Shown here in pieces: positions 32,319 to 45,960 of a stretch of DNA of 64,000 nucleotides (position 1 is the stretch's first letter; each line of letters begins with the position of its first letter). The translations under genes and the position numbers were made by a program. Under the pieces are notes generated by a model that saw only the letters and a program-made list of their open reading frames with translations, made no database searches and was not told the origin of the DNA. Source of the DNA: Candidatus Woesearchaeota archaeon (GTDB lineage: Archaea > Nanobdellota > Nanobdellia > Woesearchaeales > GW2011-AR4); assembly GCA_016188245.1 (NCBI GenBank), contig JACPIE010000038.1:30939-94938 (forward strand). Direction: 5' to 3'.

Positions 32319-32638
32319 GGTTTTATAAGATGGGCAAAACTGCGCGAAGAATTTTGATTGGCTCTGCAGCCTTTGTGTTCACAGGATTGGTGCATAGAAT
32401 ACTTGAAGATGAAATTTTAAGGCTAAAATCACTTAAATTTATAAGCGAGACTGCAGCAGAAAGAGCCAAAACCCCAGACGATAGGTATATTCATCAAAAA
32501 CGCTCTGAATACTATGGAAGGCTTGCCATCATTGCTGAAACTATTCAGTCTATAAACCCCTTTTCCATCCCATCCCATTTAAGAAATGTTTACAACAACT
32601 ATTCATCAAAAAAGCACTATGAAGCTGGCAAATCTTAA
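32315..32638 (+). CDS. hypothetical protein
   Basis: Likely start at MGKTARRIL. One hydrophobic segment. No motif recognised. Confidence 0.3.
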   Translation: MRFYKMGKTARRILIGSAAFVFTGLVHRILEDEILRLKSLKFISETAAERAKTPDDRYIHQKRSEYYGRLAIIAETIQSINPFSIPSHLRNVYNNYSSKKHYEAGKS

Positions 32639-33246
32639 TACTCAATCCCTTTTCTCGCCACAATCCCTTTTTGCCACGGATGCTTAACGCTTTGAATGGC
32701 ATTGACATAATCTGCCGCTTCCATTAATTCTTTTGGAGCGTCCCTGCCTGTGAAAACCAGCTCGACTTTTCCGTGCTCTTTGGCAATTTCCAAAACTTCT
32801 TTTAAAGGAATCAATTCCTTTGCAAGAGCGCAGTTTATCTCGTCCAGAATGACCATGTCATAATCATTGCTTTTAATGATTTTTTTGGCATGCTCCCACC
32901 CTTCCATCGCAGCGTCTTTTTCCTTGATGTCCGGCTGGAAAACAAATCTTCCTGTTTTGTCCTCAAACTCCTGCAGGTGCTTCTGCCTTTCTTTCAGCGC
33001 ATCAACCCCGAACTGTTCAATCTCAAATCCAAGTTTTTTGGCCGAATAAATTTCTCCTGTGAACCCGCTTTTCAGGAATTGTATCATATGGACTTTTAGA
33101 TTATTGCCGACTGCCCTCAAAGCCAGCCCAAGCGAAGAAGTTGTCTTGCCTTTGCCGTCCCCAGTGATTACATGGACTAATCCGAGGCTTTCCCTGCTGT
33201 TGTCGCCGGTTACTTTGATTGGAGACTTTATTTTTGTCAGTGACAT
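32635..33246 (-). CDS. cobO: cob(I)alamin adenosyltransferase (CobA/CobO/BtuR type)
   Basis: P-loop 'ITGDGKGKTTSSLG' and 'MVILDEIN'. Lies between the two B12-dependent RNR genes. Confidence 0.8.
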   Translation of the reverse strand: MSLTKIKSPIKVTGDNSRESLGLVHVITGDGKGKTTSSLGLALRAVGNNLKVHMIQFLKSGFTGEIYSAKKLGFEIEQFGVDALKERQKHLQEFEDKTGRFVFQPDIKEKDAAMEGWEHAKKIIKSNDYDMVILDEINCALAKELIPLKEVLEIAKEHGKVELVFTGRDAPKELMEAADYVNAIQSVKHPWQKGIVARKGIEY

Positions 33247-33970: not shown

Positions 33971-36900
33971 TTAAGTGCAGAGGCCCCATCCGCATCCCGG
34001 GCAGTGCAAACATCCTTCTTTAAGCTCAACTTTAGTGCCGCACTCCGGGCAGTTCTTGATTGTCTGTTTTGTAATCGGCCTTGCATCGCTTCCATTGCCG
34101 TTGGCAAAAACAAGCCCGGATTCCGACTCTTTGACCATCTTTTTCATCTCTGGCTTTATGTCCACTTCAATATTTGCGCCTTCCTTTTTCTCTTTGGCTT
34201 TTGGGGCGACAAGCACTTGATCCTTGATGCTGGAATCCCTGAACACAGTCACATCCTTGCAGCCAAGCGTGTAAGCCAGGATATAGCTTTCTTTCATGTC
34301 CTCAACAGTTGCATCTGCAGGAAAATTGTTTGTCTTTGAAATGCTTGAGTCCACCCATTTCTGGAATGATGCTAAAGCTCTTATATGGTCTTCCGGAGTC
34401 ATGTCAGTTGCCGTAACAAGCACCTTCCTCAGTTGCTCAGGCAGATATTCAATTCCCTGTATGCTGCCCCTGTGCTCGTTTATGTCTTCCATGAGCTTTT
34501 CATTCAACAGACCTTCATCCCTGAGCACTTTTTCAGCAGCGGGATCCACATAATAAAAGCTGCCGACTTTCACATTCTTCTCAAACACAAGGGAATAAAC
34601 CGGTTCCATTCCTGATGAGCATCCGGCAATCATTGAAATGCTCCCTGTTGGGGCGATTATTGTAGTATACCCATTCCTGATGCCGTGCTTCTTTATGTCT
34701 TCGCTTATTTTGCCCCAGTCAAAATGCGATTCATCTTTTAAATAAGGGCCCCTTATCGGCAATTTTCCCTGCTTGTAAAAGCTTTTGTCATAATATGGAA
34801 GATTGCCCCTTGCCTTTGCAAGCTCTATGCTTTCAACCTTGCTCCAGTAGGCTATGAACTCCATCAGCAGCTCCATGAATTTTCTTCCTTGTTCTGAGTT
34901 GTAGGCAAGCCTTAATTCATACAGCAAATCACCGACTCCCATTACACCCAATCCTATCTTCCTTGTGCTTAAGCTCATCTCCTCGATTGCTTTTAACGGG
35001 AAATTGTTGACATCAATAACATTGTCCAAAAATCTTGTGCAGCCCCTTACAACCTCCCTTAATGAGTCCCAGTCAACTGTCTTGTTGCCTTCCTCATCTT
35101 CTTTTGTAAATGCCCATACATTTATGCTGCCAAGATTGCACGGCTCATTTGGGTAAAGCAGAACTTCGCCGCAATTATGCACAACAATGCCATTGGCTAT
35201 GAAAGAATGTGTTGATGGTTCTGTAATGTCATAAACTTCTTCAATGCCACTTATCTCTATTCTATCTATGCTGTCTTCATGTTCTTCATTAGTAGTTATT
35301 ATCCTATCTTCTTCCGTTAATTTTGCAGCTTCTATCCACCCATTTGAAGTCAGTATTTTATGATCTGGTGTGCATCTCAAGTCATTTCCTTTTTTGGTAA
35401 TCAATTTAATGGTTTGTTTTAAGCCGGTTTTGAACACTTTATATTGCGTAACATGATTTATCAATTCCAAAAATTGATTTCCGTTTTTTACCGTTTGATG
35501 TACGGCTATTCCCACACCTCCATTAGGATATTTTTCAGCCAATTCTTTTATACTTATCGAACCACTCTTGGTCAAAATCATTGTATCTCCTGTTACGCAA
35601 GGATTAGTCGTGACAATAGGCCCAAGATGCTCGTAAAATGGGTTGTATTCATTTACCCTGTCAAAAAATATAATGCCGGGCTCTGCAGATTCCCAGGCCT
35701 GATAGACAACCTTGTCAAATAACACTCTTGGGTTTACAGTTTTGACCACTTTTCCGTCCTTTGGATTGACTAAGGGATATGGCTCGTTCTTTTCATAATG
35801 CTCCCAAAAATCAGGCATTATCAGTATGCTTATGTTGAAATTCCTCAATGACTTGTTGCCATCCTTGGCGGTTATGAACTGCTCTATGTCAGGATGGTTT
35901 GAATTCAGGATGCCCATGTTTGCCCCTCTTCTTATCCCCCCTTGCTTTATCACTTCAGTCATTGTATCAAACAGCCTCATGAAGCTCAAAGGCCCTGAAG
36001 CTACCCCCCCTGTGGAGCTGACAAAATCGCCTTCCGGCCTGAGCTTTGAGAAATTGTAACCCATGCCGCCTCCTGCTTTAAACACAATTGCAGTATTCTT
36101 TAGCGTTTCCATGATTCCGTCTATGGAGTCCGGAACATCCAATACAAAGCAATTATGCACAGAAACCATATTTGCAACATAAGAATGGTCTTCTTCAATC
36201 TCAAGATTGTATACAGTTCCGACATAATCCACTTTCGATATTTCGTCTATTTCTGTAAAGGTTATGCCATCTGCAACAATGGTATTTGGCTTGTAACCAC
36301 TATCAACTTCCTGCCTGTCAAATAATTCATTAATAAGCAAAAGGCCATTTTCTCCGCTTATTGTGCACCTATAAGGCTGGGTTGTTCCAAGCTTCGGCAT
36401 AGACTCCTTACCTAAAGCAGTAAAGACACCGCAGCGCATAGCCATCTGCCAGAAAGCATAAACTAAATTTTGATTGCACATCACAAGTTTTGCGTTTGTT
36501 TTATGCGAGTTTTTGAATATGGTGCCGTCTCCTCTTATCAGTCCAGCCATAATTCCTTTTTGCTTATTCTGGGGCAGTTTTATAATCCATTGCGGTATAT
36601 ATTTATTTTTATACCCTCTGCCTAAAATGTTTTCAAAGAAATTAGCCAGTATTGTAGAATGAAACCTTAACGATAGCCATTTTCTAGCTTCGCTATTTGT
36701 TTTTTCTATTCTTGCAGAAACTCCAAATTTATTCTCCATTATTGATATAACTTCTCTGCAATAATTTTCCTCATCGGCCGAAAATGTAAATCTTACACAA
36801 TCCTTGTCTGCAATTGAGCCTTCAGAAAGATAATACCCAAATAACTTCATAAGCTCGTAATCAACAGTAATGCTATTTTTTACAGGCTTTGTAGTGTGTA

Positions 36901-38104
36901 CAAATGCATTGAATTTTCCTCCCTTATACTCATAGGCACACTCATCCTTTTCATTCAAGGTTACATTTTTAACTACGTCATTAATCCTTATTTCTGTAAT
37001 TTCTTCTGTTTCTGTAGGGTAAGATAAAGCTACATAATCTCCTTCATCAAGCATATTAAGCTGTATCCATTGAATCTTGTTGTCCTTATAGCTCAGTATA
37101 GGATGCTCTTCTGTTACAAGCATGGAAGGCTTTGGGAGTTTGCTGCAACTCACTTTGTATAAAGAGTTCGTATCTCTAACATATACTTTTTCAACTTTTC
37201 TAAACCTGCCCCTGTGTGTCAGTACTTCATCTCCAACTTTAATGTTTTTTATTTCCTTTGGACCATCTTTAGCCATTATTGGTTGGTTTGGATGAAAGCA
37301 TGCGCTTCCCATTCCCAAAGGATTGCCAAAATTGGCAATTGCAGGGGTATTCGGCATAAACAGCTTTCTTGTCATCAAATTGTAAAGCTCATCAAAATTC
37401 TTCTCATAGCTGTCAAGCTCGCCTTTCTTTATCATATCAAAGAGCTTGCTCCATGACACTTTCATCTGCCCGTTGCCGTTGAACCTGTCGTACATTCTCT
37501 TCAGCGCTTCCAGATGATACCTGTTAAGCCTGTATTTTCCAATTCCATACTGGTCTTCATTAATAGCGGGCTTGAAGTCTTCTGTGAAGTTTACCGGCTG
37601 CTGGCCGTGTATATCGAACAATCTTGCATCGTAAAACAAGTCAGGCAAAGCCGCATGCACTGCAACTCTTGTAAATAGCTGCTTGGGAGTTTCAATCAGC
37701 TTGCCTGTTGCATCCTTTCTCAAGTACCTTGCTTTCAGGACCCTTAACGCGTTTACATCAAAGCGCTTGTCAACTTCGTCAATTTCCTCTTTTTCAAGCA
37801 CAAGCTGCTTTTCCTTTCTTACCTCTGACCTTTGCTGCCTGTAAAGAATGTAGGCTTTTGCAGTTGCAGCATGCCCTTCCTCAATAAGCACTTTTTCCAC
37901 AATGTCCTGAATTTCTTCAACAGAAGGCACGTCTTTGTTGAGATTTTCAAGCTGCCCAATAACTTTGTCGCTGATTTGCCTGGCTGCTTTCCTGTCTTTT
38001 CCTCCGACAGCCCTTGCAGCCTTGAAAACAGCCTCTGTAATCTTGTTTTGGTCAAATCCTGCCACAGTCCCGTCCCGTTTCCTTATCTGAAAAAGCTTTT
38101 GCAT
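33971..38104 (-). CDS. nrdJ: adenosylcobalamin-dependent ribonucleotide reductase (class II) with ATP cone, two inteins and C-terminal Zn ribbon
   Basis: N-terminal ATP cone 'IRKRDGTVAGFDQNKITEAV'. Catalytic exteins 'GGGMGYNFSKLRPEGD', 'GIRRGANMGILNSNHPDIEQFI' and NPC|GE. C-terminal 'CPECGTKVELKEGCLHCPGCGWGLCT'. The intein-free product would be 852 aa. Confidence 0.9.
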   Translation of the reverse strand: MQKLFQIRKRDGTVAGFDQNKITEAVFKAARAVGGKDRKAARQISDKVIGQLENLNKDVPSVEEIQDIVEKVLIEEGHAATAKAYILYRQQRSEVRKEKQLVLEKEEIDEVDKRFDVNALRVLKARYLRKDATGKLIETPKQLFTRVAVHAALPDLFYDARLFDIHGQQPVNFTEDFKPAINEDQYGIGKYRLNRYHLEALKRMYDRFNGNGQMKVSWSKLFDMIKKGELDSYEKNFDELYNLMTRKLFMPNTPAIANFGNPLGMGSACFHPNQPIMAKDGPKEIKNIKVGDEVLTHRGRFRKVEKVYVRDTNSLYKVSCSKLPKPSMLVTEEHPILSYKDNKIQWIQLNMLDEGDYVALSYPTETEEITEIRINDVVKNVTLNEKDECAYEYKGGKFNAFVHTTKPVKNSITVDYELMKLFGYYLSEGSIADKDCVRFTFSADEENYCREVISIMENKFGVSARIEKTNSEARKWLSLRFHSTILANFFENILGRGYKNKYIPQWIIKLPQNKQKGIMAGLIRGDGTIFKNSHKTNAKLVMCNQNLVYAFWQMAMRCGVFTALGKESMPKLGTTQPYRCTISGENGLLLINELFDRQEVDSGYKPNTIVADGITFTEIDEISKVDYVGTVYNLEIEEDHSYVANMVSVHNCFVLDVPDSIDGIMETLKNTAIVFKAGGGMGYNFSKLRPEGDFVSSTGGVASGPLSFMRLFDTMTEVIKQGGIRRGANMGILNSNHPDIEQFITAKDGNKSLRNFNISILIMPDFWEHYEKNEPYPLVNPKDGKVVKTVNPRVLFDKVVYQAWESAEPGIIFFDRVNEYNPFYEHLGPIVTTNPCVTGDTMILTKSGSISIKELAEKYPNGGVGIAVHQTVKNGNQFLELINHVTQYKVFKTGLKQTIKLITKKGNDLRCTPDHKILTSNGWIEAAKLTEEDRIITTNEEHEDSIDRIEISGIEEVYDITEPSTHSFIANGIVVHNCGEVLLYPNEPCNLGSINVWAFTKEDEEGNKTVDWDSLREVVRGCTRFLDNVIDVNNFPLKAIEEMSLSTRKIGLGVMGVGDLLYELRLAYNSEQGRKFMELLMEFIAYWSKVESIELAKARGNLPYYDKSFYKQGKLPIRGPYLKDESHFDWGKISEDIKKHGIRNGYTTIIAPTGSISMIAGCSSGMEPVYSLVFEKNVKVGSFYYVDPAAEKVLRDEGLLNEKLMEDINEHRGSIQGIEYLPEQLRKVLVTATDMTPEDHIRALASFQKWVDSSISKTNNFPADATVEDMKESYILAYTLGCKDVTVFRDSSIKDQVLVAPKAKEKKEGANIEVDIKPEMKKMVKESESGLVFANGNGSDARPITKQTIKNCPECGTKVELKEGCLHCPGCGWGLCT
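35174..35599 (-). mobile_element. intein 2 (142-aa mini-intein) inserted at the NPC|GE radical-Cys motif
   Basis: 'VTTNP|CVTGDTMILTK...GIVVHN|CGEVLLYPNEPCNLGSIN'. Cys1, a terminal HN and a +1 Cys are present and there is no endonuclease domain. The paralog reads '...SCGEQPLLPYEACNLGSINLS' at this site. Confidence 0.85.
36152..37300 (-). mobile_element. intein 1 (383 aa) with LAGLIDADG homing-endonuclease domain, inserted before a conserved active-site Cys
   Basis: Begins with Cys ('GMGSA|CFHPNQ') and ends 'MVSVHN|CFVLDV'. LAGLIDADG blocks 'LFGYYLSEGSI' and 'IMAGLIRGDGTI'. The extein junction aligns with 'LAACFVLPIEDD' in the intein-free paralog. Confidence 0.85.
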
Positions 38105-38361: not shown

Positions 38362-38778
38362 ATGAATAAAAATCGTGAAGAATGCTATGTTTTAACTGAG
38401 AAACTTGAAGAGATTACATGGGCATTGGATGGGAGCTGCAATGACATAGACTGTGACAAGTACATGTATAAACGGCTTCTTAAAAAGAAATACAAGCCGG
38501 TCCTAAAGCATAGCTACTCATGCATTCCTAAATTAAAAATGGAAAAAGAAGCAGTTATGCGCTTGTTATCTTTAAAAAAATTCCGACAGTTTCGATACAA
38601 AAAATGCGAAGTATGCGGCAGGAAAATAGATTCGTTAGGAAAACATTATGCGATTGTAAGTTTTACAAAGCCTGCTGAATATAATGGCAAGAGAGTATAC
38701 GAATGTAAATTGATTCGAACACACAAAAAATGCAAGCATAAAGTTAGCATACCGATGGGCTGGCAAAAAATGGGATAA
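38362..38778 (+). CDS. Cys-rich hypothetical protein (Zn-ribbon-like)
   Basis: 'CEVCGRK...YECKLIRTHKKCKH' CxxC pairs. Lysine-rich. Confidence 0.35.
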   Translation: MNKNREECYVLTEKLEEITWALDGSCNDIDCDKYMYKRLLKKKYKPVLKHSYSCIPKLKMEKEAVMRLLSLKKFRQFRYKKCEVCGRKIDSLGKHYAIVSFTKPAEYNGKRVYECKLIRTHKKCKHKVSIPMGWQKMG

Positions 38779-39187
38779 TTCTTTTGTCAGAAAAATAAGA
38801 GAAAAGTTCACATAACGTACAATATTTCACGAGGTTTTTTTCCTCACAAAATTTTCCCTCGTGAGCAAATTTCGGCAACCCATGAAATTTGCGAACAGAG
38901 TTGGAAAATTTTGAGAGCTGGAAAAAACTTAGGACAAATCGAAAAATGCTTGGCATTTTAGCTTAAGCGTTCGATTTTTCCGTGAAATATGTGTTATATT
39001 CTTTTCCCATGCGTAGTGTGGGAAAACTGCGTCCGCAGACTTTTTTAGACATCGTAAATCTGAGAGGCACTGTAGTTTTTACAGTAGATTTCTGCCTAAG
39101 GCAGACTAGATGTCCGAAGGACTAGAGAAGGGGCTTTTAAATTACATTAATATTTATATATGTTAATTATTTCTAGTTAAGTCAAAA

Positions 39188-40327
39188 ATGGATAAGAAAC
39201 TTCCAGATATCAGTGAATTGCCTGAAAGTCAAAGGATTCTTCTTAGGAGAGGGGGCAAAATAAAAGTTCCAAGTGAAAAAACGATTGGGTTTTTAAAATT
39301 ATACAATAAAAATATAAGAGGCACGATTGCTGGCAATGCTGTATATGCTATCCTTAACCCAGAAAAAATTGATGAAAAATTCAGAAAAGAGAATCAAGAA
39401 AAAATTGAGGAAACTCTGAACAATTACCTAAAAATAGCTTTAAAAGATATGAACAAGCAAATTGATTTGCATAAGGTCAATGAAAATATCTGCCTTTTTG
39501 ATGAGGGAATTGGTTTAGGAATATATGTGCCAAAGCTTATTCAGCAATACTTTCGCAAAGAATCTACTTATTTCAGTGATCTACTTTATGGAGCAAAATA
39601 TAATAGAAATCTTCTTAATCTTTCTGTTTTTAGCAAAATACTTTCAAAGAACATAAGGAATTTTACAGATCATGTGAATATTGATTACTTAATTTTCATG
39701 CCTTACTCACATAAAGGTTCAAAATCATTTTTTCCTTTGGAAATAATTGAGAAGGAGATACAAAAACAAGTGAACATTCCAATTTTTAGAATAATCAATA
39801 CGTCACAGCAAGAAAATCTCAAATATTCTACTTGGGCGCATAAAATACAGAGCATACTTCCAAATTTAAGAATAGACAATCCTGAAAAATTAAAATTTAA
39901 GAATATCATTCTAATTGATGATATCTATAATACTGGTGCACATCTTGCAGTTGCTTGCATAAAATTAAGACAAGCTAGTGTAAACAATATTTTTGTTTTA
40001 ACGTTGGGAGTATCCGATAATGTTAAGAATGATTTAAGCAATGAATTTGATTGGGAATGGCTGGATTTTTATAATGAAAGAAAAGAAACAAATATGATAA
40101 CTACTTCCCTCAGTCTAATAACTTTAAATTATCCATTAGACACGATAAACAAGAAGACTTCCCATTACAACTTAAAAGACTATGGAATCAAAGAATTATT
40201 GTTGACTAATACGTACCTCAAGAAAATGTTCAGAATCCATGTGAGATATTCTTCTAACAGAAGGAGTTATGTTCTTTTCATTGAGCCAGAATTAAAAGAA
40301 AAATTGAAAAGCTTTATAGGGAAATAA
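39188..40327 (+). CDS. phosphoribosyltransferase (PRTase)-domain protein, ShosT-like
   Basis: Type I PRTase PRPP-binding motif 'IILIDDIYNTGAHLAVACIKL'. Strongly AT-rich gene. Confidence 0.5.
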   Translation: MDKKLPDISELPESQRILLRRGGKIKVPSEKTIGFLKLYNKNIRGTIAGNAVYAILNPEKIDEKFRKENQEKIEETLNNYLKIALKDMNKQIDLHKVNENICLFDEGIGLGIYVPKLIQQYFRKESTYFSDLLYGAKYNRNLLNLSVFSKILSKNIRNFTDHVNIDYLIFMPYSHKGSKSFFPLEIIEKEIQKQVNIPIFRIINTSQQENLKYSTWAHKIQSILPNLRIDNPEKLKFKNIILIDDIYNTGAHLAVACIKLRQASVNNIFVLTLGVSDNVKNDLSNEFDWEWLDFYNERKETNMITTSLSLITLNYPLDTINKKTSHYNLKDYGIKELLLTNTYLKKMFRIHVRYSSNRRSYVLFIEPELKEKLKSFIGK

Positions 40328-40925
40328 TATCAGAGAGCTTGTTAAAGCTAAAATCTGGCTTTTCTTTTATTTTGTTATTATTATGCCAAAGTACAAGCCC
40401 AGAAAGACATCCAGCGTTTTTTGCAGCCAGAATATCCACATCCTGATCGCCGATATAGATTGTATTTTCAACATCTCCTTTTAGGTAATTGATGGCAATT
40501 AGTAAGGGTTTTGGGCTAGGCTTTCTAGCTCTTGTTTCACTGGGAGTTACTATCACATCTCCATATCTCAATAGATTGAATTGATTTAGCAATTTAAACG
40601 CAAACTCCTTTTTCAAAGAAGTTACAAATCCAATCTTTTTATCATTGCTTTTAAGGACTTTCATAGTTTCTTGAGTATTTTCAAAAAATAGTCTAATTTT
40701 GTCCAAATTGCTAGCATAAAATTTCCAGTATTTATTTAAGGACATAATACGGAATTCTGACAATATAGAGGTAAAAGATGCTCCCTTTCTTAATTTTGTA
40801 AATACATCTTCTTGATTAATATTTTTTCCTCCAGAATCCAAGATTGTATTAAATATTGCTTCAGCAATGCAATTTTCTGAATGCCAAAGTGTACCATCTA
40901 AATCAAATAAAATTGTCTTAATCAT
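40314..40925 (-). CDS. HAD-superfamily phosphatase
   Basis: Motif I 'ILFDLDGTLWHSE' and C-terminal 'IYIGDQDVDILAAKNAG'. Confidence 0.75.
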   Translation of the reverse strand: MIKTILFDLDGTLWHSENCIAEAIFNTILDSGGKNINQEDVFTKLRKGASFTSILSEFRIMSLNKYWKFYASNLDKIRLFFENTQETMKVLKSNDKKIGFVTSLKKEFAFKLLNQFNLLRYGDVIVTPSETRARKPSPKPLLIAINYLKGDVENTIYIGDQDVDILAAKNAGCLSGLVLWHNNNKIKEKPDFSFNKLSDIISL

Positions 40926-41830
40926 TTAAAGGGAAATTTTACTTCATGACCATTAGCAAAAGCAATGATTTCGGCTTTTTGGTCATTTTTAATTTTCAAA
41001 TTACCACTATACGCTTCGGTATTGTCTTGGAATGGGATAAGAACCCCAATTGGCTTTTTTTGCTCCTTTGCTGCAATATAGGAATTCATAGTTCCTCCTT
41101 TTTCAGAAGTCTGCACAATCAAAACATAATTTGATAGCCCAACTATTATTTTATTCCTTTTTTTCAGGGCAAAATCTTGAACTTTGGTTCCTGGAGGGTA
41201 TTCACTTATAATTATCCCGTGTTTAATTATTTCATTTTTTAAAATTAAATTTTCTTTAGGATAATCAACGTCAATTCCACATCCTAATACTGCAATAGTA
41301 TCCCCACTATTATCTAATGCTGTTTTATGAGCTATTGCATCAAGTCCCATAGCTAAACCGCTAACTATACAAAAACCATCATTAACTAGTTTTTTTACAG
41401 CAATTTTGCCATTTTCTATTGCCCATTCATCAGGTTTTCTTGTACCTACAACAGCGCAAGATTTTAGTTTATTTAGAGTACTTAAATTTCCTTTAACATA
41501 TAGAATAGGCACAGAATGACTGGACTCAAAGAGGGTTTTGGGGTAATCTTGTTCAAAAAAGGTAATTATCTTTACCTGATTTAAATTTGTTTTTTCTATT
41601 ATCTTGTGTGCTTCATGTTCAAAATATTCTAATTTTGGTTTTCTTTCTAAAATTTGAGAAACTACCTCTTTTTTTAACTTAAATTCACTTTCTAATTCCT
41701 CTTTTGTCATATCAAATACTTTTTGAAATGATTTGTAAGCCTTAAAAAAAGTCTTAAATTTAACTGGGCCAAATCCTTTAACTTCTAAAAGATTTAGAAT
41801 CGCCCCTAGCTCCTTTAGATCATTCACCAT
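40922..41830 (-). CDS. dprA: DNA-processing protein DprA/Smf
   Basis: N-terminal SAM/HhH domain, then Rossmann DprA core 'IVSGLAMGLDAIAHKTAL...TIAVLGCGIDVDYPKEN...RNKIIVGLS'. Confidence 0.8.
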   Translation of the reverse strand: MVNDLKELGAILNLLEVKGFGPVKFKTFFKAYKSFQKVFDMTKEELESEFKLKKEVVSQILERKPKLEYFEHEAHKIIEKTNLNQVKIITFFEQDYPKTLFESSHSVPILYVKGNLSTLNKLKSCAVVGTRKPDEWAIENGKIAVKKLVNDGFCIVSGLAMGLDAIAHKTALDNSGDTIAVLGCGIDVDYPKENLILKNEIIKHGIIISEYPPGTKVQDFALKKRNKIIVGLSNYVLIVQTSEKGGTMNSYIAAKEQKKPIGVLIPFQDNTEAYSGNLKIKNDQKAEIIAFANGHEVKFPFK

Positions 41831-41952
41831 AATATAAAGTCTATCAATGTTAATTTAAAAAATTATCTAATTATATGGGGCAAACAAGCTAGGGAGTTGG
41901 GGCTTTAAAATACCATTTATGATTTTAGAATTTTTGATTTTTTACAAATATA

Positions 41953-44835
41953 TTACCAATTTACTTTAATCTTTAGTACTTCGTTGTGCAATTTATTAAA
42001 ATAATCTAATTTACCGTCTTTTTTTCCTTTTTCATATAGTTTTTTTATTAATCTTACATCATGCTTACAGTACTCTGTAACTTTATCTATTTTTCCCTCC
42101 TTAAACCATTTTAAAGATTGCAGTCCATCCGCTATCTTATTCTCATTAAAATTTATTTGGGCAAGGTCTCCTAATTTTAATCTAAAATTAAGCCTGTTTC
42201 TTATATGTTCTAATAAATCTAATGGTTTAATCAAATTCTGATTAAAATTTTCATACCCAGATAAAACTCTAAAATCGAAATATTTGATATTATACCCAAT
42301 AACTAAATCTGCCTTGTATAAAGATTCAATTAGTGCCTGCACTTCATTTTCTGTATAAACTTGATAGTTATCATTATTATCTAGGGTAACAGCTATAGCT
42401 ACCTTCATTTTGTCAATATTTCTCCATCCGCCTACTTCATCTGCACCTTTCTGAGTTTCTACATCAAAAAAGATTATATTTTGTTGAATTTTAGTATCTT
42501 CATCAATTAGTTTCGTAACTAATTGAGGCTCTACCTTTATATCTTCCACTTTTAGATAGCCACGCATATATTTTAATATTTCAATTGCAGTGGCTTTACT
42601 TAGTGGTTCATTATCATTACCACACTTAGGACTCATTATACATTTAGGGCAGCCATTGTCTTTATTACATTTGCATTTACTTATTAGTTCATTCGTAAAA
42701 CCTAATAGCTCGTCAAATATATTATATGCTTTTTCACAAAGTCCAATCCCTCCATCATATCCGTCGTAAATAAAGATAGATGCTCTTTTAGTTTGTGGAT
42801 GGAATAACATGGAATATCCGCCTATGTCCCATCGGTCACATAAAACTTTGATTGGAAATAAAGAAATTATGCCATGTTCAATTGCATGCAATCCACCTCC
42901 ATAAAGTGTCTCTTTATCTATGTTATTTTTTGGACAAAATGTAGAACTAACTACATCTGGTAGTTCTATCCAACAAGATTTAGTTATTAGCTTTACCATA
43001 GGGCAATCTACATCTATTAAAGAACTCATTTTTTCTCTTGTAGACTTCTTTATTTTATAGTAACCAATTACTTGTTCATTTACTTCGACTATTCCAAATT
43101 TTAGTTTGAAACTATTAAATGTTTTTTCATCTAACACCTTTATAACTCTAATGTCTTTGAGAGAATATGGCTCAGTATAATAATCAACAAAACAAGGTTT
43201 GACATAAATATCTTTTCCATAATCATCAATTTCTGTAACGATGAATTCCCTTCCCCCATGTAAGTATATAGCTCCGCTATGGCATTCATTGTAGATATTA
43301 AATATTGAAATATCCCCGATGACTTCTTTTTTGTTTTTGTTGATAATTGTATATTGTTGTCTCGAATCCCTTAAAGTAACTTTTCTGTGTAGGTCTTGGT
43401 GAGATATTAAATCGCCCCTATAATTTCTTGCTAATCTTCCCTCACTCTCTAATTCTTCCATGATTTTTTTGGCATAAACAGGAAAATATTTTTCATTATC
43501 TTTTTGTAATGGAAACTCTATCGATGCACACAATAGATGATTCATTAGGACATACCTATTATTAATATCAATTATGGCTTCCTCAAATTTATTCTCAAAA
43601 AGATAATTTGGATTATCTAAAAAATAGGAGTCCATCGGAGAACTACCATCAAATAAAATTACTACAAAAGATTCCTTATCCCTTCTTCCAACCCTGCCTG
43701 CTTGTTGCCAAGTGCTTATTAAACTCCCCGGATAACCAACCATAATGCAAAAATCTAAATTCCCGATGTCTATTCCAAGTTCAAGTGCATTTGTGCTAAT
43801 AATACCTTTTAATTTTCCTGTTCTAATTTTTTTCTCGATTTCTCGTCTTTCTTCTGGGAGCAAGCCTGCTTTGTACGGTTTAACAACTTTTTTTATGTCA
43901 TTATCACTCCACATATAAAGTAACTCAGTAATTTTTCTTGCTCTGGTAAAGGCTATCGTTTTCAAATTTGATTTAATACCTAACTTCAATAACTCAACAG
44001 CTTCTGTATTGATTGACCTTTGCTCGATATCTTGATTTTTGAGAAGCTCATTAATATCACTAATTGTAGGTGTCCAATAAATAAAATTTTTCTTGCTGGA
44101 AGGGTGATGAGATTCAGTAATTACTTTAAAATATCTGCCAGGGATTAAGTTATCTATAAATGATTCTGGATTACCAATTGTCGCCGAGGAACTGATAAAT
44201 TGAGGATTTGAATTGTATAAGTCGCATATTCTCAACAATCTCCTCATGACCATTGTAAAATGTGTCCCAAATATTCCTCTGTATATATGAGACTCATCTA
44301 CAATAACATATTTCAAATTTTTAAAAAATTTCTCCCATTTTTCCCTATATCTTAAAATTGCACAATGTAATTCATTAGGGTTAGTAATGATTATATTAGG
44401 CAGGTTGTGTCTTATGAATCTTTTCTTTGAATCATCAGTGTCTCCATCGTAAACTTCAAAGCTAAAACCTTTATTGTAAGGTAGATTTTCGTCTATTTCT
44501 CTTAATTTTTCTAATTGATCTTGTTGTAGAGCTTTCAAAGGAAAAATATAAAGTGCTCGAGTTTCTTTATTTCTTAATATACTATTTAAAACTGGAATGT
44601 TATAGACTAGTGTCTTGCCACTTGATGTTGGGGTTGTTAATAATACATTATCCTTTCTGTGTACAAGTTCGATAGCTATTGATTGATGTTTGTATAATTT
44701 TGTAATTCCTAATTTATTTATAGCATTCTTCAAATCTTGGTCTATCCAGTGGGGGAAATCAAAGTATTGTCCCTCTTTCTCATCTATAACTTTCCAAAAT
44801 TTTATTTTTTTGTTATCGAGATTTAAAAAGTTCAT
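41953..44835 (-). CDS. MrfA-like DEXH-box helicase with DUF1998 zinc domain fused to a C-terminal MrfB-like DEDD 3'-5' exonuclease
   Basis: Helicase motifs 'LLTTPTSSGKTL', 'VIVDESH', 'QQAGRVGRR'. DUF1998 Cys cluster 'CKCNKDNGCPKCIMSPKCG'. Exonuclease Exo I 'IFFDVETQ', Exo II 'YNIKYFDFRVL', Exo III 'YCKHDVRLIKKLY'. Confidence 0.75.
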   Translation of the reverse strand: MNFLNLDNKKIKFWKVIDEKEGQYFDFPHWIDQDLKNAINKLGITKLYKHQSIAIELVHRKDNVLLTTPTSSGKTLVYNIPVLNSILRNKETRALYIFPLKALQQDQLEKLREIDENLPYNKGFSFEVYDGDTDDSKKRFIRHNLPNIIITNPNELHCAILRYREKWEKFFKNLKYVIVDESHIYRGIFGTHFTMVMRRLLRICDLYNSNPQFISSSATIGNPESFIDNLIPGRYFKVITESHHPSSKKNFIYWTPTISDINELLKNQDIEQRSINTEAVELLKLGIKSNLKTIAFTRARKITELLYMWSDNDIKKVVKPYKAGLLPEERREIEKKIRTGKLKGIISTNALELGIDIGNLDFCIMVGYPGSLISTWQQAGRVGRRDKESFVVILFDGSSPMDSYFLDNPNYLFENKFEEAIIDINNRYVLMNHLLCASIEFPLQKDNEKYFPVYAKKIMEELESEGRLARNYRGDLISHQDLHRKVTLRDSRQQYTIINKNKKEVIGDISIFNIYNECHSGAIYLHGGREFIVTEIDDYGKDIYVKPCFVDYYTEPYSLKDIRVIKVLDEKTFNSFKLKFGIVEVNEQVIGYYKIKKSTREKMSSLIDVDCPMVKLITKSCWIELPDVVSSTFCPKNNIDKETLYGGGLHAIEHGIISLFPIKVLCDRWDIGGYSMLFHPQTKRASIFIYDGYDGGIGLCEKAYNIFDELLGFTNELISKCKCNKDNGCPKCIMSPKCGNDNEPLSKATAIEILKYMRGYLKVEDIKVEPQLVTKLIDEDTKIQQNIIFFDVETQKGADEVGGWRNIDKMKVAIAVTLDNNDNYQVYTENEVQALIESLYKADLVIGYNIKYFDFRVLSGYENFNQNLIKPLDLLEHIRNRLNFRLKLGDLAQINFNENKIADGLQSLKWFKEGKIDKVTEYCKHDVRLIKKLYEKGKKDGKLDYFNKLHNEVLKIKVNW

Positions 44836-45348
44836 TTTATCTTGTTATACCCTATTCTTTTGTTGGTTAAAGTAAAATATTATATAAATATTCCCTTATA
44901 AAAGCTCCTTCTCCCGTCGTTAAGTAAAAACTTAGGAGAACGAAGTGAACCGTATAATCTCTCGTTATGCGAATCTCCTTGAGTTTGCATTTCTAAGATT
45001 ATGCGAAAGTGTCTCTCAATTAAGATTTACGGCGTAAGCCTTTTCATAGGTGTCTAAAAAAGTGAATATAACGCCGTTATGGCGAACTTTTCAATCTGCA
45101 TTTTTTGTATTTTGCCCTAAAAACAGAATTCACTTACAATGCACTATTCTGTTGTTCTTGGTGTAACAAACCAGTTTATTTTTCCATATTGTAGACAACT
45201 ATTCCAAGATAGCAACAAAAATGTACATTTTGTACAAAAGTTTATATATAATCTCTACATTATACTAATTTAGCAGGTAAAACCTGTTGGTCAGTGTACT
45301 TTGAAGTGCACGCACAACAGTACCAGCAGGTGCTGCTTTTCTTTCGTT

Positions 45349-45960
45349 TTACCATAAATGGGCTACGTTAACTTTTTTCTCGATTACCCTGAAATAAATG
45401 TCATTGCCGTGTTCAAACTTATGAAAAACTGCCCATGACACAATATCTGCTATCTGCAATCCGGGCCAAGCATGTGACCAGCTGTGGTATATCTCTATCT
45501 CCCTAGCCCATCTCGCTTCTTTGAACTTCATCTCCATATACTTGTTAAAGTCTTCAATTAAAGTCTGCTTTCCTTTTGACCTGTCAATCCTCATAGTCAA
45601 TCTTCTGGAATCAACCGATATATTGGCTAAATGGCTGCACACAAAATTATACAATTTGTGCTTGTCGCTTTTGAGAAATTGGCTATACAATTTTTTCTTT
45701 TCAAGTATAATGCTTTGTGCATGGGCGGATTCAATTTCCATAAACTTTTTTAATGTATGCATAATCAATTCTGCACTTGAGTCATTCGCCTTGATTTCAG
45801 AAGCATTTTTTAGCTCTTTTTTAAATTTGTTTCTTCTCATATTTTTTATTATTCGTTCTAAGAAAGCGGGATTGTCTACCCAAATTGCAGTAATCACAAA
45901 ATATTTTGAGCCCTTTTCTCCTAAATCTCCAGTTTCATCAATGTAAACGTATCTTTCCAT
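45349..45960 (-). CDS. DUF3800-domain protein
   Basis: N-terminal 'VYIDETGDLG' is the signature start of DUF3800. Confidence 0.65.
   Translation of the reverse strand: MERYVYIDETGDLGEKGSKYFVITAIWVDNPAFLERIIKNMRRNKFKKELKNASEIKANDSSAELIMHTLKKFMEIESAHAQSIILEKKKLYSQFLKSDKHKLYNFVCSHLANISVDSRRLTMRIDRSKGKQTLIEDFNKYMEMKFKEARWAREIEIYHSWSHAWPGLQIADIVSWAVFHKFEHGNDIYFRVIEKKVNVAHLW

Follow-up and report, generated by a model that had tools for sequence, protein, structure and literature searches.

The 64,000-nt stretch of Candidatus Woesearchaeota archaeon DNA analysed here (contig JACPIE010000038.1 of assembly GCA_016188245.1, positions 30,939 to 94,938; hereafter, the window) includes a gene for a 960-amino-acid (aa) protein in which an MrfA-family DNA helicase and a DnaQ-fold exonuclease are joined in one chain. 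We favour, as the probable explanation, a single-chain MrfAB-type helicase-exonuclease for DNA excision or resection, whose position beside a gene for a DprA-like protein reflects co-residence in one genomic island and not a conserved partnership. The fusion is real and informative, but it is already known, being both common in bacteria and present in the literature.

The open reading frame (ORF) has 960 codons, an ATG start and zero internal stops. Because homologs align over 96-100% of the query length, a frameshift artefact can be excluded, and with it the possibility, raised in an earlier note made from this DNA alone, that two separate genes had been joined by a frameshift. The central claim of that note, that a DExH/DUF1998 helicase of the MrfA family and a DEDD exonuclease share a single polypeptide, is borne out by the uninterrupted ORF, by the Pfam domains and by the match to MrfA. 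Indeed, residues 8-734 form one continuous alignment with residues 18-731 of Bacillus subtilis MrfA/YprA (PDB 6znp; E 8e-147), and this collinearity indicates that the helicase part is a genuine member of the MrfA family without large insertions. Pfam places a ResIII domain (residues 46-184) over the DEAD domain, and the domain order RecA1-RecA2-WH-OB-CON-MZB (winged helix, oligonucleotide-binding fold, connector, MZB), with its four-cysteine zinc site, is that of MrfA; the inserted zinc modules of the defence branch of the family are absent from both the 6znp alignment and the Pfam matches. We assessed conservation in an alignment of the window protein with 25 full-length homologs (41-46% identity). 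Helicase motifs I (TSSGKT, K74), II (DESH, 180-183), III (SAT, 217-219) and VI (QQAGRVGRR, with QxxGRxGR at 377-384) are all invariant, as are C721, C723, C729 and C732, so that the four-Cys DUF1998 module described in the earlier note stands, within a Pfam MZB domain at residues 653-733. By homology to MrfA, we infer that the helicase would be ATP-dependent and of 3'-5' polarity.

In the full-length AlphaFold2 (AF2) model (mean predicted local distance difference test score (pLDDT) 84; predicted template modelling score (pTM) 0.74), residues 765-783 are disordered, suggesting that the exonuclease is a tethered module, not one rigidly docked on the helicase. The exonuclease is recognised by Pfam as RNase_H_2 (PF13482; residues 788-936, E 4e-6, 27.3 bits against a cutoff of 22), and the three motifs that the earlier note had listed, FFDVETQ, YNIKYFDFRVL and YCKHDVRL, are all present in the translation. 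The four DEDD residues are invariant (D791, E793, D854 and D926); the correction that is needed concerns the fifth conserved residue, which is Tyr922. Since Tyr922 lies four positions before the last Asp and is at least 90% conserved, we assign the domain to the DEDDy class; H925, inside the same motif, is variable among homologs. A separate alignment of the C-terminal 190-240 residues gave the same conservation pattern. For an AF2 model of the last 191 residues (pLDDT 93.9), Foldseek found matches in the domains with which several polymerases (archaeal family-B, T7, RB69 gp43 and Pol epsilon) carry out 3'-5' exonucleolytic proofreading; the best match has E 9e-7, probability 1.00 and a query TM-score (TMq) of 0.64. 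The relation of the C-terminal region to DnaQ-like exonucleases, on which the earlier note had made its proposal depend, is thus supported both by fold and by PF13482. The protein ends 34 residues beyond D926, and Pfam detects no tetratricopeptide repeat (TPR) domain there.

The likeness to MrfB is looser than the likeness to MrfA. MrfB is a DEDDh enzyme (D107, E109, D172, H258, D262) with a C-terminal TPR domain, and the structures closest to its own are proofreading domains of the DEDDy type, those of PolB and Pol epsilon (PMC11194089). The window exonuclease shares with it the DnaQ fold, the DEDD residues and these structural neighbours. The motifs, reconstructed for MrfB from published mutagenesis primers, are also alike: NLFFFDTETTG in MrfB and NIIFFDVETQK in the window protein for Exo I, LVTYNGKAFDWPQ (core YNGKAFDWPQ) and LVIGYNIKYFDFRV for Exo II, and LHHNEMDVLSL (H258-NEM-D262) and TEYCKHDVRLI for Exo III, giving the common patterns FFD[VT]ET, YNxKxFD[FW] and [YH]xxxDV. 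By contrast, the fifth catalytic residue is His258 in MrfB (H258-x3-D262) and Tyr922 here; the TPR domain and the N-terminal extension of MrfB are missing, with a covalent linker in place of the extension; MrfA and MrfB, the mitomycin C repair pair of B. subtilis, are two proteins, whereas the window gene encodes one polypeptide; and the host is probably an archaeon (DPANN, Woesearchaeota) instead of B. subtilis. Searches of the PDB sequences with phmmer and with a 20-sequence profile, at E-values up to 1-10, did not bring up MrfB, nor was it among the 50 best Foldseek matches listed for the exonuclease model. MrfB itself probably belongs to PF13482. The window exonuclease is a relative of the MrfB type that is only loosely MrfB-like: the fold, the DEDD residues and the similar motifs agree with the description in the earlier note, and two defining features of MrfB, the DEDDh signature and the TPR domain with its N-terminal extension, do not.

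Joining a helicase to such an exonuclease is not peculiar to this family. The Werner syndrome protein, WRN, combines a superfamily 2 (SF2) RecQ helicase with an N-terminal DEDDy 3'-5' exonuclease. Staphylococcus aureus DinG has an N-terminal exonuclease fused to its helicase, as listed in PMC12345164. In both, as in the window protein, one chain unites a DnaQ-fold 3'-5' exonuclease with an SF2 DNA helicase; they differ in their helicase families (RecQ and XPD-like DinG) and in the position of the exonuclease, which is N-terminal in them and C-terminal in the window protein. The three kinds of fusion arose independently. A single chain would fit a functional coupling of helicase and nuclease, as the earlier note had argued.

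The fusion is widespread. The best 120 matches among 5.8 billion proteins are 939-1032 aa long and have the same helicase and MZB domains, most of them with a recorded match to the exonuclease domain; the sources, for those matches that name one, include KSB1, Firestonebacteria, Acidobacteriota, Syntrophaceae and Thermodesulfobacteriota. Protein and genome searches also met the fusion in Desulfobacterota, Latescibacterota, Patescibacteria and other groups. In a scan of one genome per species, from which the best 80 loci were analysed, all 80 were bacterial and 40 had the fused exonuclease. How common the fusion is had been left as a check by the earlier note, and these two sets of matches establish that it is common. 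No relative, near-identical copies aside, exceeds 46% identity to the window protein. A search with an exonuclease-domain profile matched 3,948 cluster representatives (50% identity) at E of 1e-3 or below and 573 at 1e-30 or below, with many of the short matches resembling fragments of fused genes. Alternative architectures were also seen, in which the exonuclease stands alone at about 180 aa or is joined to Sipho_Gp157 or WYL (P0305, P0311, P0385 and P0387; more than 200 bits); these suggest that the module has been shuffled among phage-type or conflict-type proteins. No separately encoded homolog of the window exonuclease was found near the unfused MrfA genes of 40 loci at E-values up to 10, and the genes downstream of those helicases appear, by inspection, to be mutually unrelated. 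In the YprA tree of Bell et al. (2025, bioRxiv 10.1101/2025.09.15.676423), the DNA-repair branch includes YprA helicases "fused to MrfB/YprB homologs". The architecture of that group is the same, although the fusion is mentioned only in passing and is uncharacterised in that preprint, and the window gene most probably belongs to it.

The neighbourhoods of the fused homologs give no indication of a conserved partner. When the DprA-like, haloacid dehalogenase (HAD), phosphoribosyltransferase (PRTase)-like and DUF3800 proteins of the window were searched against all ORFs of the 80 loci, there were zero matches; none of the 40 loci with a fused gene has DprA, HAD or PRTase within 10 kb, and clustering of neighbours at the same 40 loci revealed no conserved partner of the fused family, the largest cluster being an ABC-F ATPase at six loci. 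We looked up the two closest relatives, and neither has DprA, HAD or PRTase beside it: the first lies among glycosyltransferase genes, and the second occurs in two contexts, beside an EcoRV-type restriction-modification pair and beside secreted protease genes. The fused family is also nearly absent from the 2.9 million viral contigs of IMG/VR. The lack of a conserved partner, the ordinary contexts and the scarcity in viruses fit a solitary repair or housekeeping enzyme. A viral origin of the block of genes described below was rejected, the fused family and the DprA clade both being essentially absent from IMG/VR.

The DprA-like gene next to the helicase gene has conserved company of its own. 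Compared with PDB sequences, the DprA-like protein matches DprA and ShosA about equally (about 1e-22 to 1e-26; ShosA entry 9vzo at 7.5e-22). It scores 168.3 bits against the curated TIGR00732 cutoff of 191.15, and it is missing the C-terminal DprA_WH domain (PF17782) that is present in more distant canonical DprA matches. The homologs nearest to it (42-59% identity) group in a clade of their own, separate from canonical DprA; a good many are DprA-HAD fusions of about 515-520 aa, among them one named as an Asgard archaeon protein. The PRTase-like protein of the window, PRT1, matches PADLOC ShosT (E 9.5e-13), the C-terminus of PsyrT (2.5e-7) and NCBIfam ComF (3.9e-7), and it has a phosphoribosyl pyrophosphate (PRPP)-loop motif, IILIDDIYNTGAH. 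We surveyed 25 metagenome loci with a DprA-HAD-PRTase module (loci L090-L115). Eighteen of the 25, wherever the contig is long enough, have the order DprA, HAD (separate or fused) and a co-directional 373-aa PRTase (PRT2). Elsewhere, PRT1 was met in just three lineages, each time as an additional convergent gene, and it makes up only three protein clusters among the 5.8 billion proteins. The window module has no co-directional PRT2, only the convergent and very rare PRT1. An MrfA-like helicase, or any other conserved extra gene, was found at none of the 25 module loci; at L090, the closest relative, what lies upstream of DprA is a gene with no relation to the helicase-exonuclease. L093 and L099 have in common a gene resembling a type I restriction-modification methylase, which fits a defence-island setting of the module.

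In the toxin-antitoxin defence system ShosTA, a PRTase toxin interferes with purine metabolism and with DNA replication, and a DprA-like antitoxin attaches to single-stranded DNA (ssDNA) as well as to RecA (PMC11961720, PMC12961424). The hallmark of Shosta/PsyrTA, a DprA-like antitoxin beside a PRTase-domain toxin, is found again in the neighbours of the helicase gene by PADLOC, by PDB matches and by the 18 loci with the conserved order; a helicase-exonuclease as a conserved component of such systems is found at none of the 25 module loci and none of the 40 fused-helicase loci. Since DprA-HAD-PRTase loci are conserved without the helicase, we regard the DprA-like gene as part of a self-contained, Shosta-like module. 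The DprA-like and PRTase-like proteins are common to it and Shosta, and the window adds a HAD phosphatase that is linked or, in relatives, fused to DprA, a HAD-containing variant that was not found in the ShosTA literature we searched. PsyrT/RqlH adds an SF2 helicase, whereas the helicase of the window is of the MrfA family, is unfused to PRTase and is not conserved with the module. The window PRTase gene is convergent and highly divergent, unlike those of ShosTA and RqlHI/PsyrTA.

Table 1. Features of the helicase-exonuclease gene and its neighbours (window coordinates)
Feature	Position	Strand	Basis or remark
MrfA-like helicase fused to DEDDy exonuclease, whole gene, 960 aa	41953..44835	(-)	ORF, Pfam, PDB, alignment
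RecA1 / DEAD domain, residues 49-223	44167..44691	(-)	Pfam DEAD E 3.7e-30
RecA2 / Helicase_C domain, residues 286-385, with motif VI QQAGRVGRR	43681..43980	(-)	Pfam, alignment
Hrq1/MrfA-type winged helix, residues 422-485	43381..43572	(-)	Pfam WHD_HRQ1 E 8.4e-8
OB fold and beta-sheet connector, about residues 490-650	42886..43368	(-)	6znp alignment without large insertions; strand-rich in full-length model
MZB / DUF1998 zinc-binding domain, residues 653-733, Cys721, 723, 729, 732	42637..42879	(-)	Pfam MZB E 1.1e-20
Flexible linker, residues 765-783	42487..42543	(-)	pLDDT below 50 in full-length AF2 model; length varies among homologs
C-terminal DnaQ-fold 3'-5' exonuclease, residues 786-960	41956..42480	(-)	Pfam RNase_H_2, AF2, Foldseek
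Exo I FFDVETQ, residues 789-795 (D791, E793)	42451..42471	(-)	D791, E793 invariant
Exo II YNIKYFDFRVL, residues 848-858 (D854)	42262..42294	(-)	N849, F853, D854 invariant
Exo III YCKHDVRL, residues 922-929 (Y922-x3-D926)	42049..42072	(-)	D926 invariant, Y922 at least 90% conserved
DprA-like protein, ShosA type, 302 aa	40922..41830	(-)	PADLOC ShosA E 1.9e-69, full length
HAD-IA phosphatase, 203 aa, 4-bp overlap with DprA-like gene	40314..40925	(-)	Pfam, NCBIfam, relatives
PRTase-like protein (PRT1), ShosT/ComF type, 379 aa, convergent with HAD	39188..40327	(+)	PADLOC, NCBIfam
Promoter-like element upstream of helicase gene: GAGAAGGAGCTTTTA then AATATTTATATA	44881..44921	(-)	Local alignment
Matching promoter-like element upstream of PRTase-like gene: GAGAAGGGGCTTTTA then AATATTTATATA	39117..39160	(+)	Local alignment

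The helicase-exonuclease and module genes are also linked locally. The PRT1, HAD, DprA-like and helicase-exonuclease genes have 29.6-31.0% GC and form a block of about 5.8 kb (39054-44952), whereas the flanking housekeeping genes, for an intein-containing ribonucleotide reductase, a class II aminoacyl-tRNA synthetase and a TerC-family protein, have 41-44% GC; the small genes bordering the block have 35%. Eight independent read sets yielded contigs that match the window at 99.9-100% identity, and in the Logan assemblies five of the eight cover exactly the four block genes, with ends at 39066-39099 and 44836-44952, while the three shorter ones begin at 39054-39099. The uniform low GC and these contigs suggest that the block is a discrete, possibly polymorphic cassette. 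The read sets with a separate contig of about 5.8 kb belong to one sequencing series (SRR121133xx to SRR121134xx). The cluster representative, reported as 100% identical to the window protein, is encoded by a 5.8-kb contig that matches the window DNA at 99.9% identity; the contig index has no entry for the exact window protein.

The two outer, inward-facing genes of the block have in common a 44-nt element, GAGAAGGRGCTTTTA about 10 nt upstream of a TATA-like AATATTTATATA, with a local alignment score of 35 against 19.9 +/- 2.9 for shuffles. Its 15-mer is present only at these two sites within the window, the pattern having been derived from the same two sites. The element could be the putative site of a common regulator, and the four genes may be regulated together; L090 has a merely vaguely similar purine-rich stretch at the same place. 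Among the repeats checked around the block, only this promoter-proximal similarity exceeds shuffles: a gapless repeat finder gave short pairs only and no long terminal repeats, and a 15-nt direct repeat, D17, is by rough estimate at about chance level. There are no tRNA genes in the window that could serve as integration sites. The four genes were probably acquired together, horizontally, by the Woesearchaeota (DPANN) lineage. Two neighbouring proteins are 100% identical to database entries whose annotated source is a Candidatus Woesearchaeota archaeon. On the right, the block is bordered by a DUF3800 gene (45349-45960, (-)) with a weak PADLOC match to candidate defence family PDC-M04A (E 3.7e-7), and on the left by a 138-aa Cys-rich ORF (38362-38778, (+)) without a family match. 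The ribonucleotide reductase beyond it (33971-38104, (-); 1377 aa) apparently has, from its translation, two intein-like insertions that each end in HNC, and a nearby corrinoid adenosyltransferase gene (32635-33246) would fit a B12-dependent ribonucleotide reductase.

Several of these observations weigh against a solitary repair enzyme. The uniform GC content, the 5.8-kb contig with breaks at both ends in five read sets and the common promoter-proximal motif are hints that, in this lineage, the Shosta-like module and the helicase-exonuclease are transferred, and perhaps also function, as a unit; the DUF3800 neighbour makes a defence role of the island type conceivable; and the function of MrfAB is itself reported to be species-specific. 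The helicase-exonuclease might then be a working part of a four-gene Shosta/PsyrTA-like cassette, in which the PRTase-like protein is the toxin and the DprA-HAD proteins and the helicase-exonuclease either repair the damage that it causes or sense invading DNA. The base composition that sets all four genes apart from both flanks, the contigs bounded exactly at these genes (with the left end shared by the three shorter ones), the element placed before both outer genes and the lack of the co-directional PRT2 that most relatives have all speak for this explanation. There are also precedents for a trio of helicase, PRTase and DprA-like proteins, in RqlHI/PsyrTA (PMC4670107) and in ComFA/ComFC/DprA, and ShosA has been proposed to counter its toxin via DNA recombination or repair (PMC11961720, PMC12961424). 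Set against these points are the two comparative surveys, in which no DprA-HAD-PRTase locus, L090 included, has an MrfA-like helicase and no fused-helicase locus has DprA, HAD or PRTase; moreover, the DprA-like gene has its own TATA-like element, placed as in those relatives in which it is the first gene. Because the link comes from a single lineage and contradicts the comparative data, we consider the cassette explanation unlikely, while ranking it first among the alternatives. We are similarly doubtful that the Woesearchaeota lineage recruited an MrfA-type helicase-exonuclease into a mobile Shosta/PsyrTA-like cassette of four genes. If it did, the helicase, PRTase and DprA trio known from RqlHI and from the competence proteins ComF/DprA would be rebuilt in the cassette from different parts, and the task of the helicase-nuclease would be either to resolve the DNA lesions that the PRTase induces or to attack invading DNA.

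We find it quite improbable that the protein is instead a stand-alone effector against viruses or plasmids, degrading foreign DNA from a defence island in the manner of other YprA-family helicases that have a nuclease at the C-terminus (ARMADA, Druantia). The AT-rich island with its adjoining Shosta-like module and DUF3800 gene would suit such a role, several defence systems have at their centre a YprA-family helicase with a fused nuclease (10.1101/2025.09.15.676423), and close relatives of the exonuclease are fused to Sipho_Gp157 or WYL in phage-type or conflict-type contexts. Nonetheless, the helicase aligns collinearly with MrfA, with none of the zinc modules that are inserted in the defence branch, its bacterial homologs are solitary genes among housekeeping genes, and the family is essentially absent from viral contigs. 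PADLOC matches are confined to the generic helicase core and DUF1998, with no DISARM or Druantia partners nearby. The resemblance to DISARM and Druantia pointed out in the earlier note thus extends to these shared stretches and to nothing beyond them, and a reading as DISARM (DrmA) or Druantia (DruE) was rejected, as partner genes and large defence-type insertions are absent: no DrmB, DrmC, methylase or DruA-D/H gene is present among the ORFs between 33 and 51 kb.

Least probable of all, to the point that we give it very little weight, is a fuller form of the operon that the earlier note had proposed as an ssDNA-processing module, in which the helicase-exonuclease and a genuine DprA would prepare ssDNA for recombinase loading as a transformation or recombination module. 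The two genes are indeed on the same strand and 122 bp apart, and DprA proteins load recombinases on ssDNA (PMC12961424). The DprA-like protein, on the other hand, falls under the curated DprA cutoff (168 against 191 bits) and lacks DprA_WH, and in its clade a HAD phosphatase is always present, either linked or fused, with a PRTase after it. The pairing was seen in no other member of either family, neither at the 40 fused loci nor at the 25 module loci, and the proposed ssDNA-processing module finds no support in this comparison.

For the polarities, the substrate and the biological role of the MrfAB-type helicase-exonuclease that we favour, we infer the following scheme. The N-terminal 760 residues would act as an SF2 helicase of the MrfA/YprA family, which by homology would translocate 3'-to-5' on ssDNA and have a WH-OB-CON-MZB canopy. 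Through a disordered tether about 20 residues long, it would be joined to a compact two-metal 3'-5' exonuclease with Tyr922 as the fifth catalytic residue. The helicase may load at a gap or a 3' tail and then unwind the DNA, and the 3' end that it frees would be degraded by the tethered exonuclease, such that a damaged or unwanted strand is excised or resected. That the bacterial fused genes are solitary, in ordinary chromosomal contexts, fits a repair or housekeeping role of this kind.

Natural fusions are good evidence that two proteins work as one machine, and this one supports the view that a DnaQ-fold exonuclease receives its 3' end from an MrfA-type helicase. Being compact and single-chain, such an enzyme would also lend itself better to biochemistry or structure determination than the two-protein MrfAB complex. 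Hundreds of bacterial homologs, as well as the literature, already permit the same argument, and the window gene adds little to it. Specific to the window are the probable DPANN host, the Tyr (DEDDy) exonuclease and the AT-rich block shared with the DprA-HAD-PRTase relative of Shosta. That poorly described relative may be the more useful lead.

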